Positions 38,229 through 44,899 of a stretch of DNA of 64,000 nt are shown piece after piece (position 1 is the stretch's first letter; each line of letters starts with the position of its first letter). The notes under the pieces are model-generated. The model did not search any database. It was not told where the DNA came from and saw nothing but the letters and a program-made list of their open reading frames with translations. Source of the DNA: Gammaproteobacteria bacterium (GTDB taxonomy: Bacteria > Pseudomonadota > Gammaproteobacteria > SZUA-229). The DNA is taken from positions 6,422 to 70,421 of the forward strand of contig JAJDNP010000153.1 of the NCBI GenBank assembly GCA_022340645.1, in the 5' to 3' direction. Position numbers and translations under genes: made by a program.

Positions 38229-39122
38229 TCAATGCATCTGATCGACGTCAACCAGGACCATAAAGCCGGAAACGACTTCCAGCAACTCGGAGGTAATCGT
38301 CTCCTGTCGTTGCTGACTGAAGTTGCGGGAGAGTTCAAGCAGGCGCTCGCTGATATTGCGCTCTGCCGCCTGCATTGAAGCCAGGCGGCCGGCGTTCTCG
38401 CTGGCAAGAGAAAACGCACAGGCCCGAAACACCCAGATAAATAAATACTGTCGTACGAGAGAGGCAAACAGGTCGGCACGTTCCATGGTGTAGGTGGGTA
38501 TCGAGCGGGAAGGCCAGGCGGGTGCATTGCTACCCTGAAATTGGGTGAACTCAAGCGGCAGCAATTGAGAAAGCTCGGCACGGCGTCCCTTGCCGCTGAG
38601 CTGGCGATTATAAAATAACAGGACTTTTGCTACCGTATGTTGTTTCTGCCAGCTTTCAATTTGCTGCAGGATAGCCTGTACAGTGGCGGTGATGCCGGCA
38701 ACGGAGCCCGGCACAAAAAATGATTCATGCACCGACTGGCCGGCTTCACGCAGACGTGCTTCCACTCGTGCCCCCACGGCAAGAACATGACGCCTGTCTA
38801 TCGCGATTTTTTTATTTTCCAGGGTTGCCAGGGTGAATTCCGTAATGTCCTCATTGAAGCGGCCGCACAGGCCGCGATCAGAACCGAATACCACAATGCC
38901 GACATCGGCCTGTTGCCGATTACGCGCCTCGGCCATGGGTACACGATCGGCAAACAGTACCTGCAGGCCAAGTTCGATAGTACGGCTGTAGTTGTGCATC
39001 GATTCGATAGCACGCTCATAAGGATAGATGCTGACCGCCGCCAGCGCCTTCATGGTACGCACGATAGACTGGATGTCCTGTACTGTTTCTATGCTGCGTT
39101 TCAGTGTGTCGAGGTTGGGCAT
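38229..39122 (-). CDS. atpG: N-type ATPase gamma subunit
   Basis: 297 aa; gamma-subunit N- and C-terminal helices (RSIETVQDIQSIVRTMKALAAVS...; SENAGRLASMQAAERNISERL); last gene of atpDCQRBEFAG operon. Confidence 0.85.
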   Translation of the reverse strand: MPNLDTLKRSIETVQDIQSIVRTMKALAAVSIYPYERAIESMHNYSRTIELGLQVLFADRVPMAEARNRQQADVGIVVFGSDRGLCGRFNEDITEFTLATLENKKIAIDRRHVLAVGARVEARLREAGQSVHESFFVPGSVAGITATVQAILQQIESWQKQHTVAKVLLFYNRQLSGKGRRAELSQLLPLEFTQFQGSNAPAWPSRSIPTYTMERADLFASLVRQYLFIWVFRACAFSLASENAGRLASMQAAERNISERLLELSRNFSQQRQETITSELLEVVSGFMVLVDVDQMH

Positions 39123-39134
39123 CGGCGCTTCCTG

Positions 39135-40634
39135 TCAGGTGGGCAGTGCCATGCCGGCGAGTTCGAGCAGTTGCTCACGATCCTTTTCGGCAAGTTTTCC
39201 CCCCGCCTGGATGCGCGCACAGGCCTCGCCGGCCTGCGACAGAACGATGTTGCGAATCGCCAGTTCAAAATGCGCTGCCTGTGTCAGCGGTATATCGTCA
39301 AACAAACCGGCCGTTACTGCCAGCAGTACTGCCACCTGTTCGCAGGCAGTCAGCGTTTCGGCTTCACTTTGTTTCAGAACCTCACGTACCCGTCGGCCGC
39401 GCTCAATGGCATGACGGGTGGCATCGTCCAGGCGGGTGCCAAATCGGGCAAAGGTTTCCAGCTCCTCGAACTGGGTGTAGCTGAGGCGCAAATCACCCGT
39501 TATGGCGCGAAACGCTGCGAGTTGTGCCTTGCCGCCGACGCGTGAGACGGATTTGCCGACATCGACCGCTGGCAAGTTGCCAAGCCGGAATAAATCAGGC
39601 GATAAATAGATCTGACCATCGGTGATGGAGACCAGGTTGGTCGGGATGTAAGCGGCGATATTTTGAGCCTCGGTTTCGATTATCGGCAGCGCAGTGAGCG
39701 AGCCGCCACCGCGCTTGCTATGCAGTTGGCTGGATCGCTCCAGTAGGCGCGAATGGATATAAAAGATATCGCCAGGAAATGCCTCACGACCCGGAGGCCG
39801 CCGCAATAACAGGGAAAGCTGTCGGTAGGCGTCAGCATGGCGGCTCAGGTCATCATAAATAATGAGCACATCCTGTCCCTGCTCCATAAAGTATTCCGCA
39901 ATGCTGGTGGCCGCATACGGCGTGATGTATTGCAGGCCTGGTGCGTCCTCAGCGCTGGCCACAACCATAATGGCGTGCGCCAGCGCGTTATGCGCACGCA
40001 GGGTAGAGAGCACACGCGCCACCGCGGAACTGCGCTGACCAATGGCGCAGTAAACACAGACCATGTCCTTGTCGCGCTGGTTGATCAAGGTGTTAATGGC
40101 GATTGCCGACTTGCCTGTTTGCCGGTCACCCAGGATCAGCTGGCGTTGTCCCCGGCCAATGGGAATGAGGGCATCGATGGCCTTGATCCCGCTTTCCAGG
40201 GGACGAACCACCGGCGCCCGGTCGAGGATCGCCGGGGCTTCGCGTTCAATCGGCCAGCGTGTTATGGCTTGCACTTCGCCCAGGTCATCAAGCGGTTGTC
40301 CCAGGCCGTTCACCACCCTGCCCAACAGACCGGGACCGACAGGCACATCGATGACCCTTGCGGTGCGTTTGACTTCCATGCCTACGCGCAGAGTTTCACT
40401 GTTACTGAGTAGAATCAGGCCCACCTCATCCGGATCAAGATTGAAGGCAATGGCATGGCTACCGTCAGCACACCGCACCAGTTCGTGTGCGAGCACACCC
40501 GGTAATCCGGAGGCCAGTGCAACGCCCTGTCCCACGCGGGTAATCGTTCCGGTTTCCACGATGTGTAAGGTGGGCGATTGGCTGAGCACCTGTTGTAGTG
40601 AGTTGACGGTGTCTTCGAGGGTTTCGATCAACAT
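39135..40634 (-). CDS. atpA: N-type ATPase alpha subunit
   Basis: 499 aa with P-loop GDRQTGKS and full F1-alpha similarity. Confidence 0.9.
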
Positions 40635-40654
40635 GGTTGCGATAGTGTGTAAAT

Positions 40655-42434: not shown

Positions 42435-42745
42435 GGTACCTGTCCTGTATGTGCATTAGCATGACGGGAGCCGGGCTTGATGTGCTGTACAAGCAAGGCG
42501 CGGGAGACGAGCATACCTAGCAGGGCGATTAAAAGTTGTTGCCACGCATCGGCAAACAACAGGTACAGTACGAACACCACGGTGATCGTGCGTAGCAGCA
42601 GGCTGAGTCCAAACCAGGCAGCGGTGTAGCTGCGATGCGTCAGCCGGCGCAGGCTTAACCATAAAACGCCGTAGTAGAAGAACCCCAGGACCACGCCCAC
42701 AAGCGCCGGATAGACATACGTGAACAATACTTGCATCAAGGTCAT
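42431..42745 (-). CDS. atpR: N-ATPase-specific small membrane subunit AtpR
   Basis: 104 aa, 3 TM, 4-nt ATGA overlaps with both neighbours; position between atpQ and atpB as in described N-ATPase operons. Confidence 0.7.
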   Translation of the reverse strand: MTLMQVLFTYVYPALVGVVLGFFYYGVLWLSLRRLTHRSYTAAWFGLSLLLRTITVVFVLYLLFADAWQQLLIALLGMLVSRALLVQHIKPGSRHANAHTGQVP

Positions 42746-43107
42746 TATTTCTTTGTCTCGTCTATTATGCTCTCCGCGCGGAAGTCTGGCCGGGACTCAA
42801 ATTTGCGTTCCCGACTCACCCAGCGCCAGGCATTGATACAGCCCAGCAGGATGCCAACAAACAACAGGCTAAGTGTCCAGGAGATTCGCTCTGCTGGCCA
42901 ATGACGATCCAGCCATATCCCCAGTACGGCGCCCAGCACCGTTGGAATCGCTACCGACCAGCCAATCAGGCCGAACATACCAAAGCCAAACCAGACGGTA
43001 CGCTTTTTCTGTGCCGCGGCCCAGCGCCGGCGCGCGGCCTTTTTCTGCACCTGTTCCTCCAGTCCCCCTGGCGTGCCTTGAGGGGGATTAGATTTTCGCT
43101 CAATCAT
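42745..43107 (-). CDS. atpQ: N-ATPase AtpQ (AtpZ/AtpI-like) membrane protein
   Basis: ORF-track start (43290) overlaps atpC; the internal ATG at 43105-43107 (MIERKSNPP...) forms an ATGA overlap with the atpC stop; two TM helices (FGFGMFGLIGWSVAIPTVLGAVLGIWL; LSLLFVGILLGCINAW). Confidence 0.7.
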   Translation of the reverse strand: MIERKSNPPQGTPGGLEEQVQKKAARRRWAAAQKKRTVWFGFGMFGLIGWSVAIPTVLGAVLGIWLDRHWPAERISWTLSLLFVGILLGCINAWRWVSRERKFESRPDFRAESIIDETKK

Positions 43108-43496
43108 GGCAATTTTTCCATTTCGATAAAGCGCCGTACGATGCCGGCTTCGAGGCGGGCGGCTGCGGAGCGCGCCAGGCGTTCTTCTTCGTTTTGATTT
43201 TTGAAATAGTTTGTCACCATCTGCCGCAGGCTGTCCAGATCTTTGCCCGGTATGGCGCTGAAAGTTGAGATTAAGACCTCCTGGCCGCACTTGACCAGTA
43301 TGCCTTCGTCAGTGGCGAGGATTTTCTCCACGCCATCTTCAGCGAGATAAATGATGAGGCCGGGCACCAGGGCGGCAACAAAATCGATATGGCGGGGTTC
43401 GAGACAGAAAAAACCATTCTGCGCCTCGGCCATGATCTTCTGCACTGGCTCATCGATAAAGACTTCCCCGGGGATCTGGACCTTGAGTTGCATCAT
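43104..43496 (-). CDS. atpC: N-type ATPase epsilon subunit
   Basis: 130 aa; beta-sandwich + helical hairpin pattern of F1 epsilon; ATGA overlap with atpD stop. Confidence 0.8.
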
Positions 43497-44899
43497 GTCA
43501 CATCCTCCGCGCCGACTCTTTGTTTGACAGACTCAGCCACCTCGGAGAGGTCACCGATCATGTAAAGGGACTGCTCCGGGTAGTCGGCGAATTCGTCGTT
43601 CAGGATCCGCTCGCACCCTGACAGGGTGTCTTCGAGACTGACCAGGGCACCAGTGTGGCCGGTAAAGTGCTCGGTGGTAAAAAAGGGTTGCGTCAGGAAG
43701 CGTTCCAGCCGGCGTGCGCGATTGACCGTAAGTCGATCATTTTCCGAAAGTTCTTCCATCCCGAGCAAGGCGATAATATCCTTGAGACTCTCATATTCGG
43801 CGAGCGTCCTGCGTGCTTCATTAGCGATCTGGTAGTGCCGAGGCCCTACCACGGCGGGGTTTAACATTTTCGAGGTGGATGCCAATGGGTCGACCGCAGG
43901 GTAAAAGCCCTGGCTGGCGCGTTTACGCGACAGCACGATAGAGGCTGATAAATGAGCGAAAGTAGCACTGGCCGCCGGATCGGTGAAGTCATCTGCCGGC
44001 ACATAGACCGCCTGCACCGAGGTGATGGCTCCGCTCGCTGAATTACAGATACGTTCCTCCAGAGCTGCCAGCTCTGTCGTCAGGGTTGGCTGATATCCGA
44101 CACGTGAGGGGATGCGTCCGAGCAGGCCGGAGACTTCATTGCCGGCCTGGATGAAACGGAAGATGTTGTCGATGAGCAGCAGCACATCGCGGTGCTCCAC
44201 ATCGCGAAAATATTCTGCCATGGTCAGTGCGGAATGGCCGACACGGAAGCGGGCGCCGGGTGGCTCGTTCATTTGGCCAAAGACCAGCACGGAGTTTTCG
44301 AGTACACCTGCGTCCTGCATTTCACGATACAGTTCTTCGGCCTCACGGCTGCGTTCACCAATGCCGCAGAATAGACTGACGCCCTCGTAGTGGCCGGCAA
44401 TATTATGAATCAGCTCGGTAATCACCACTGTTTTGCCGACGCCGGCGCCGCCAAACATGCCGGCCTTGCCACCGCGTTCCAGCGGCGCCAAAAGGTCGAT
44501 CACCTTGATCCCGGTCTGGAAAATTTCCGCACTAACGGTGCGTCGCGCCAGGGGCAGAGAAGGTTGATGGATAGACCGCCACTGAACATCCTGCAATGCC
44601 TGCTTGCCGTCGATGTGATTCCCGAAGACGTTCAACATGCGACCAAGTAGCGCGTGCCCGACGGCTACCGTTATCTCCCCGCCTGAATCGACTACCGGAT
44701 CGCCGCGGGCGAGGCCCTGTACAGGAGTCAAGGCGATGCCACGGGCGATCTGATCATTTTCATGGCTCAGCACTTCGATGATAACCTTTCCCTGCTCCCC
44801 GGCAGTCAAGCGACGTCGGATCGGTGGTACTTCCTCCGTGAAGCGCATATCCAGAACGCTGCCGCGAATCGCATGAATTGTGCCGTTGTAGTTATTCAT
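43493..44899 (-). CDS. atpD: N-type ATPase beta subunit
   Basis: 468 aa with P-loop GGAGVGKT and DELSEED-like region ([27 protein letters not shown]). Confidence 0.9.

Follow-up and report, generated by a model that had tools for sequence, protein, structure and literature searches.

The 64-kb stretch of DNA analysed here (from contig JAJDNP010000153.1, referred to as a whole as the window) comes from an uncultured gammaproteobacterium, and at positions 38229–44899 of its minus strand it carries nine genes that very probably constitute an intact N-type (alternate F1Fo) rotary ATPase operon, predicted to encode an ATP-driven Na+ exporter. The content and order of the genes, the family membership of their products, the intact motifs and the ion-ligand set of the c subunit are established by the comparisons below; the coupling ion and the direction of pumping are predicted from them with lower confidence.

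Operons of this type were reportedly first seen in Methanosarcina barkeri, by Sumi and colleagues in 1997. The N-ATPase family was defined in 2010 by the gene order atpDCQRBEFAG, the 'tell-tale' gene atpR, the presence of AtpQ (PF09527/TIGR02230, as opposed to AtpI, PF03899), the lack of a δ subunit, a long b subunit that aligns with the C-terminus of δ, and subunits that cluster apart from their F-type counterparts (Dibrova, Galperin & Mulkidjanian 2010, PMC2881411). In the genomes surveyed there the N-ATPase is always a second copy beside a housekeeping F- or A-ATPase, and the family was inferred to work as an ATP-driven ion pump without ATP synthesis; the corresponding TIGRFAM models are dated 2006 in the same paper (PMC2881411). 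Since 2010 N-ATPases have been mentioned routinely in genome papers (Nitrospira, Thiotrichaceae, Chlorobium and others). The window operon shows every sequence-level feature of the definition and no structural departure from the family.

Organization of the operon

Gene coordinates are based on a list of open reading frames (ORFs) for the 36.5–46.5 kb portion of the window, in which nine co-directional ORFs follow one another in the order β-ε-AtpQ-AtpR-a-c-b-α-γ (Table 1). A first-pass annotation, made from the sequence alone, had described a tightly coupled nine-gene N-type operon on this strand, and the ORF list matches its extent and gene order exactly. The first four junctions are overlaps (4 nucleotides (nt) for β/ε, 4 nt for ε/AtpQ, 1 nt for AtpQ/AtpR and 4 nt for AtpR/a), while a/c, c/b, b/α and α/γ are separated by 2, 2, 20 and 12 nt. 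With overlaps or gaps of at most 20 nt between all of its members, the operon is therefore tightly coupled and has no space for a tenth gene. The mechanically called AtpQ ORF is 181 amino acids (aa) long and begins with a GTG at 43290, of which TIGR02230 and PF09527 cover only residues 62–161; Met62 is encoded by an ATG at 43107, placed in an ATGA overlap with the ε stop codon, and gives the 120-aa product of Table 1.

Every ORF was assigned to its expected subunit by Pfam and NCBIfam, and all nine frames are full-length when set against the family models; neither frameshifts nor internal stops interrupt them. The translations retain the GGAGVGKT (Walker A) and IGERSRE motifs in β, GDRQTGKS in α, the stator Arg of the a subunit, found within LAVRLFGNMMSG (AVRLFGN), and the carboxylates of the c subunit. 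These features bear on whether the operon might be the decaying and no longer functional remains of an earlier horizontal transfer. It does adjoin a truncated P-type ATPase gene, indicating that the neighbourhood has been rearranged, but the nine full-length frames have kept their translational coupling and conserved residues occupy the catalytic, stator and ion-binding positions, leaving the probability of a relic close to negligible.

Table 1. Coordinates and supporting evidence for the operon genes and the features next to them. Model scores are in bits, followed by the curated cutoff in parentheses where given.
Feature	Position	Strand	Evidence	GenBank
atpD(N), F1 β, 468 aa	43493..44899	-	TIGR03305, 775.8 (752); PF00006; neighbour-joining tree	MCG6939305.1
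atpC(N), ε, 130 aa	43104..43496	-	TIGR03166, 129 (100); NF004871, 150 (135)	
atpQ, small membrane protein (former 'gene 1'), 120 aa	42745..43107	-	TIGR02230, 124.5 (46.7); PF09527 (ATPase_gene1), 57	MCG6939303.1
atpR, N-ATPase hallmark membrane protein, 104 aa	42431..42745	-	PF12966, 64 (26)	
atpB(N), Fo a subunit, 243 aa	41703..42434	-	TIGR03306, 349.9 (302)	
atpE(N), c subunit with Na+-type two-carboxylate site, 92 aa	41422..41700	-	TIGR03322, 156 (131)	
atpF(N), extended b with δ-like C-terminal domain (~aa 175–246), 254 aa	40655..41419	-	TIGR03321, 245 (225); hhalign	
atpA(N), F1 α, 499 aa	39135..40634	-	TIGR03324, 766 (750.5); neighbour-joining tree	MCG6939298.1
atpG(N), γ, 297 aa	38229..39122	-	TIGR03323, 304.6 (282)	
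Intergenic region upstream of the operon, 179 nt, probable promoter region	44900..45078	-	one sigma-70-like consensus match	
139-aa ORF	45079..45498	+	N-terminal 100–130 residues of a P-type cation ATPase (Cation_ATPase_N and first transmembrane helices)	MCG6939307.1
TrkH (490 aa) and half-size TrkA-like protein (222 aa), divergent from the operon	45536..47673	+	PF02386, PF02254, PF02080, TIGR00933, TrkA models	

The sigma-70-like match upstream of β (TTAATA-17-TATAGT, 44951–44923, minus strand) is a match to consensus only; the 179-nt region as a whole contains fewer sigma-70-like matches than shuffled sequence, and neither promoter nor terminator scans gave matches above the shuffled-sequence level.

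Family models and phylogeny

NCBIfam holds dedicated 'alternate F1F0 ATPase' models for N-type operons, and eight of the nine subunits pass the curated cutoffs of these models (AtpR is taken up below), with the N-specific 'exception' models outscoring the generic F-type ones. The two small membrane proteins that the first-pass annotation had named AtpQ and AtpR match TIGR02230 and PF12966, respectively, above cutoff. All eight core subunit families are homologous to those of the canonical F1Fo enzyme (atpIBEFHAGDC), with which they share the catalytic machinery; in the PDB, β is matched best by F1 β chains (E ~1e-150). The canonical operon differs in having a separate δ/OSCP gene, in placing β and ε last, whereas they come first in the window, and in carrying AtpI where the window has AtpQ and AtpR; in addition, the window b subunit is fused to a δ-like domain, and the subunits of the two enzymes fall into separate clades.

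Comparison loci were collected from genomes (one per species) scanned with β as the query (80 loci) and from metagenomes scanned with the a subunit (80 more); BLAST searches with the nine window proteins against every ORF in a locus served to sort them. The nine-gene order of the window was found in 92 related loci, and the F-type order a-c-b-(δ)-α-γ-β in about 46 of the genome-scan loci. Hosts of the N-order loci include Thermodesulfobacteriota, Methylococcales, Alteromonadales, Nitrospiria, Cyanobacteria, Verrucomicrobiota, Planctomycetota, Acidobacteriota and Alphaproteobacteria, among others. Among the genome-scan loci, identity to the window proteins in N-order versus F-order loci is 56–73% versus 51–55% for β, 40–59% versus 23–34% for a, 53–83% versus 28–50% for c and 25–58% versus 20–29% for γ. 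That these ranges touch for γ and nearly touch for β is due only to a distant N subclade (the ETMxxY group described below). For the closer N-order loci (L001–L023) the ranges lie well apart from those of F-order loci, with a, b and γ 31–59% identical to the window proteins (b lowest, a highest) versus 18–34% in F-order loci.

Neighbour-joining (NJ) trees with Kimura correction and 100 bootstraps, built from 80 β and 64 α sequences, separate the window and the N-order loci from the F-order loci in 100/100 replicates for β and α alike; these are unrooted distance trees, and their F-type sample is an opportunistic one made up of whatever the β search returned. The expectation of the first-pass annotation that α and β would cluster with N-ATPases, and not within ordinary F-type clades, is thus borne out. 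If the operon encoded the organism's ordinary housekeeping F1Fo ATP synthase, its genes having been rearranged, this would account for the above-cutoff scores that generic F-type models (TIGR01039, TIGR00962 and others) give as well, and for the 'F0F1 ATP synthase' label that automatic annotation gives to most subunits. However, the N-specific model outscores the generic one for every subunit, AtpR and AtpQ are present while δ is absent, the NJ split is complete, and a, b and γ are far closer to L001–L023 than to the F-order loci, so that a rearranged housekeeping enzyme is scarcely credible.

Stator and accessory membrane proteins

The absence of a δ gene, claimed from the first, holds throughout the window. 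Pfam finds no OSCP/δ match among the nine operon proteins, and a hidden Markov model (HMM) of F-type δ built from 26 subunits of F-order loci turns up nothing when run against the whole window translated in all six frames (best E = 1.2). In the F-order comparison loci a δ ORF of 150–200 aa lies between b and α. The b subunit, already described as extended, is about 90 residues longer than an ordinary b, and hhalign of 30 N-type b subunits against the 26 F-type δ subunits (probability 97.4%, E 1.6e-11) pairs b residues 175–246 with δ residues 124–195 (of 200), the N-terminal part of δ having no counterpart. The alignment independently reproduces the observation of Dibrova et al. (PMC2881411), and on this profile evidence the b C-terminus and the C-terminal domain of δ are homologous. 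A tblastn search with the nine operon proteins detects no second rotary ATPase in the 64 kb, in keeping with the earlier statement that the window does not contain the housekeeping F1Fo operon.

Two buried arginines are the defining trait of AtpR (PMC2881411). Both are present in membrane segments of the window protein, the topology being judged from hydrophobic stretches of sequence and not from a predictor. Among the homologues gathered by iterated HMM search (106 loci and the window, a set that takes in the distant subclade and a plasmid locus), Arg52 is kept in 105 of 107 and Arg82 in 103 of 107. Neither AtpR nor AtpQ has a homologue among solved structures. Their most likely role is as partners of the two-glutamate c-ring in its assembly or regulation. 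In sum of its parts the window operon thus resembles the family described in PMC2881411 in gene order, in AtpR with its two membrane arginines and AtpQ, in the missing δ and the long b with a δ-like C-terminus, in a c subunit with two Glu and ESTxxY, and in separately clustering α and β.

The coupling ion

In phmmer searches against the PDB the c subunit aligns full-length with the Na+ rings of Acetobacterium woodii (4bem), Fusobacterium nucleatum (3zk1) and Ilyobacter tartaricus (1yce), and also aligns with H+ rings. The I. tartaricus ligand positions Q32/V63/E65/S66/T67/Y70 correspond to E30/M61/E63/S64/T65/Y68 in the window. The offsets of the I. tartaricus reference used for this numbering agree with the phmmer alignments to PDB chains. 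The helix-1 packing positions of the window subunit (S23-x-G25-x-A27-x-G29) are intermediate between the GxGxGxG of the I. tartaricus c11 ring and the AxGxAxAxG of the Burkholderia pseudomallei c17 ring.

Helix 2 of the window subunit reads M61-V-E63-S64-T65-A-I-Y68, and E30 supplies a helix-1 Glu in place of Gln32, so that the Na+-ligand pattern of Meier and Mulkidjanian is present as E-M-E-S-T-Y. Position 63 contributes a backbone carbonyl, and Met for Val is therefore tolerated there (Thiotrichaceae N-ATPases are discussed in PMC10532065). The combination of two Glu with ESTxxY was read as Na+-binding by Dibrova et al. (PMC2881411). The Na+ F-type synthases of I. tartaricus, Propionigenium modestum, A. 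woodii and F. nucleatum share their c ligand positions with the window, where Glu at position 32 creates a two-carboxylate site of a kind also described for other c-rings (PMC5376962); they differ in being housekeeping, reversible enzymes that have a δ subunit, follow the atpIBEFHAGDC order and lack both AtpR and AtpQ. E...M.ESTxxY is the commonest pattern among the N-order loci sampled (15/32), while the second, more distant N subclade (56–61% β identity, mostly Alphaproteobacteria) carries E...ETMxxY. An Aphanothece halophytica N-type ATPase is reported to be Na+-coupled and linked to salt stress (PMC5376962, ref. 20), behaviour that is predicted here for the window enzyme; the host is a cyanobacterium, and the likeness is one of the family-level motif.

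The two-carboxylate site with its complete Na+ ligand set, which places the window subunit in the Na+-motif group and not in the Burkholderia group, predicts Na+ coupling and hence ATP-driven Na+ export, and on this sequence pattern we consider Na+ the probable coupling ion. We hold the prediction no higher because sequence-based prediction has failed once in this family. The N-type ATPase of B. pseudomallei, the only biochemically tested proton-coupled ring of this type, likewise has a nine-gene operon and a two-carboxylate c subunit; its c17 ring (Glu30, Glu61, Thr62, Met63, Tyr66; 5.7 ions per ATP) was predicted from sequence to be Na+-coupled but measurement showed it to be H+-selective (Schulz et al. 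2017, PMC5376962).

This precedent weighs against reading the window operon as an N-type ATPase that exports Na+, and so do several further points. AtpR scores slightly under the cutoff of its N-type model TIGR03165 (53.1 versus 55.5 bits); in Synechococcus PCC 7002 the N-ATPase transcripts are not raised at high salinity; a large c-ring, like the c17 of Burkholderia, would be suited to making ATP at low ion-motive force as well; and the interpretation assumes a separate housekeeping F-ATPase elsewhere in the genome.

The Burkholderia result, together with the ability of Na+-binding rings to carry H+ at low Na+ (PMC2881411), raises the prospect that the window enzyme is an ATP-driven H+ pump serving pH homeostasis or the membrane potential. 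Set against it, the window has Ser64-Thr65 (ESTxxY) where Burkholderia has Thr62-Met63 (ETMxxY), the packing motifs of helix 1 are different, ETMxxY is restricted in our sample to the separate distant subclade, and the ligand set known from structurally proven Na+ rings is complete in the window c subunit. We regard proton coupling as unlikely, though to be taken seriously.

Direction of ion transport

For the Na+ exporter that we favour, the expected mechanism is as follows. By homology to F-type enzymes, α3β3 would hydrolyse ATP, and γ/ε would turn the c-ring against the a subunit, with the long b serving as peripheral stalk and its own C-terminal domain standing in for the missing δ. Rotation of the c-ring would carry Na+ from the cytoplasm to the periplasm, supporting Na+/K+ homeostasis and the membrane potential. 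AtpR, through its two arginines, and AtpQ may aid assembly or regulation of the two-glutamate ring, and the ATP of the cell would be made by the separate F-ATPase. The ion-exporter role put forward in the first-pass annotation is inferred in the literature for the family as a whole and is consistent with the evidence from the window; we lean towards ATP-driven export as the working direction of the predicted pump. TrkH/TrkA next to the operon fits a role in ion homeostasis.

A reversible enzyme working mainly as a sodium-motive or low-potential ATP synthase would be compatible with the catalytic and coupling residues, which are all intact, and with the very large size of the one known N-type ring (c17), whose 5.7 ions per ATP thermodynamically favour synthesis at low ion-motive force; the Na+/Pi cotransporter of the window likewise suggests a Na+ cycle in the organism. 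On the other hand, N-ATPases accompany a housekeeping F- or A-ATPase in the surveyed genomes and deletion of the N-atp operon of M. acetivorans left growth and ATP synthesis unaffected (PMC2881411), no Na+-pumping respiratory enzyme is encoded within the window, and the phosphoketolase and acetate kinase genes found beside the operon in related loci fit an ATP consumer better. A mainly synthetic role is, on balance, distinctly improbable.

Genomic surroundings and mobility

The nearest sequenced relatives of the operon are on metagenome contigs (L084–L086, 85–90% β identity); in the best species-representative genome β is only 73% identical. At the DNA level L085, whose β is 90% identical, and L086 align with the window at 78% nt identity, L085 from 44900/44901 to 38247 and L086 from the same point to the end of its contig. 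This span covers the operon from the start codon of β to the end of γ; in the flanks only the Trk genes align. Accordingly, the operon acts as a self-contained unit in differing surroundings, and the sharp end of homology at its borders speaks for transfer or rearrangement as a unit.

For the family as a whole, lateral mobility is supported by the presence of a-subunit homologues (E <= 1e-20) on 65 plasmids, 19 of which are predicted to be conjugative or mobilizable; these include A. marina NC_009929 and PCC 7002 NC_010474, both named in PMC2881411. A Legionella anisa plasmid (NZ_CP082853.1, 138 kb; L083, region 78–9280) carries the same nine genes, preceded co-directionally by thymidine-phosphorylase-family and ribose-phosphate pyrophosphokinase genes, a partner set unlike the phosphoketolase and acetate kinase described below. 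For the window copy the data are consistent with mobility. A recent genomic island was considered and rejected. No integrase or transposase was found among the scanned neighbour genes, and no direct or inverted repeats flank the operon beyond chance-sized 17–20-mers. Overall GC content is 55.7% in the operon versus 49.6% in the rest of the window, and GC content at third codon positions falls among the values of the other genes in the window; composition therefore gives no sign of recent transfer.

The remainder of the window is ordinary Gram-negative chromosomal DNA, with genes for MgtE, the Na/Pi cotransporter, citrate synthase, a DegP-like protease, LpxR, MipA, a fatty-acid cis/trans isomerase and two cyclopropane-fatty-acid-synthase clusters, and with no tRNA or Rfam matches. 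Lipid-remodelling genes lie around the operon at 33950–36376, 48052–51405 and 54030–55085 (an 808-aa cis/trans isomerase, two cyclopropane-fatty-acid-synthase-like proteins and a DUF1365 and amine-oxidase cluster); together with MgtE and the Na/Pi cotransporter at 1216–4901 they make the window rich in envelope and ion-stress functions. A 73-aa LapA-domain ORF lies downstream of γ. Unrelated to the operon, the plus strand at 19093–23645 encodes a 918-aa cytochrome c554-like/TPR protein followed by a 590-aa FG-GAP/ASPIC-UnbV protein.

Between the operon and the Trk genes lies the 139-aa ORF, a hypothetical protein in GenBank. It matches only the first 100–130 positions of P-type ATPase profiles that are 755–997 positions long, and residues 16–116 of an 880-aa chain. 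With this partial match, and with TrkH starting 38 nt after its stop codon, we rejected both a real small protein and the start of a longer P-type ATPase; the ORF looks like a truncated remnant, marking where the stretch between the N-atp operon and the Trk genes was rearranged long ago.

Recurrent neighbours of N-ATPase operons

The TrkH/TrkA pair, which lies outside the operon, is a possible functional partner of the ATPase. L014, L085, L086 and L124 also have a homologous Trk pair no more than 5 kb from their N-atp operon, with 48–67% and 54–71% identity to the window pair, and none was found in about 0.9 Mb of non-N comparison loci. Three arrangements are seen: upstream and co-directional (L014, 7482–9565; L086, 65–2163), 3–5 kb downstream (L085, 18922–20729; L124, 17377–19490), and divergent upstream as in the window. 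The association may reflect a functional pairing of Na+ export with K+ import; the loci are partly related, and enrichment is not established. In L085 a Na+/H+ exchanger gene directly follows γ (14252–15423), split into ORFs of 227 and 164 aa that match profile positions 2–164 and 214–373, by a frameshift or an assembly error; beyond it lie an MscS channel, a patatin-like protein and TrkHA, making up an ion and osmotic homeostasis cluster.

A second set of neighbours is more widespread. Of the 92 N-order loci, 20 that are spread over several phyla have genes for phosphoketolase (Xfp), acetate kinase (AckA) and/or a glycogen-phosphorylase-like protein (GlgP-like) within 10 kb of the operon; the loci are not phylogenetically independent. 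Examples are L124 (3787–7407), L085 (3270–7397), L004, L130, L147, L140, L163, L016, L023 and L014, and two further partial N-type loci (L127 and L157) carry such neighbours as well. Often the genes are immediately upstream of the operon and co-directional with it: AckA-Xfp ends 99 nt before β in L124, and Xfp with the GlgP-like gene ends 157 nt before β in L085. None of these genes was found in the F-order loci, and none is in the window. Full-text searches, whose coverage stops short of subscription journals, returned no paper joining N-ATPases with phosphoketolase. The low-oxygen (lxa) locus of Burkholderia cenocepacia, which was checked for an N-ATPase, has an acetate kinase and a cation P-type ATPase and no second ATP synthase.

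At the level of the family, and not as a property of the window, these neighbours suggest that N-ATPases may be fed by substrate-level (fermentative) ATP when respiration is off. Taken further, the Na+ pump, TrkH/TrkA and the Xfp/AckA/GlgP-like genes could form an undescribed recurrent neighbourhood, a 'starvation/anoxia ion-homeostasis module' of which the window would carry a reduced, Trk-only version, a speculative proposal that is quite unlikely to be right as it stands.

Annotation and biological meaning

Eight of the nine operon proteins are already in GenBank, from MCG6939297.1 (γ) to MCG6939305.1 (β), with locus tags LJE83_141xx. The NCBI Prokaryotic Genome Annotation Pipeline (PGAP) names α 'alternate F1F0 ATPase, F1 subunit alpha', AtpQ 'AtpZ/AtpI family protein', AtpR 'ATP synthase subunit I', b 'hypothetical protein' (MCG6939299.1) and the remaining subunits 'F0F1 ATP synthase subunit ...', so that most carry a generic name, along with proton-motive Gene Ontology terms. 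The exact 130-aa ε is absent from NCBI proteins and held by non-NCBI sources only; PGAP probably chose another start or made no call. The window operon is accordingly an ordinary member of a known family, defined in 2010, that automatic annotation has partly recognised.

For the window the value of these results is mainly correct annotation, since the generic labels hide a distinct machine. Na+ extrusion beside K+ uptake, which is probable here, suggests a saline, alkaline or fluctuating habitat for the organism. For the family, the neighbourhood pattern of related loci (Xfp, AckA, GlgP-like and TrkHA) could hint at its physiological role: if the proposed module were real, glycogen-derived substrate-level ATP would be spent by the N-ATPase to keep Na+ outside and K+ inside and the membrane energised.

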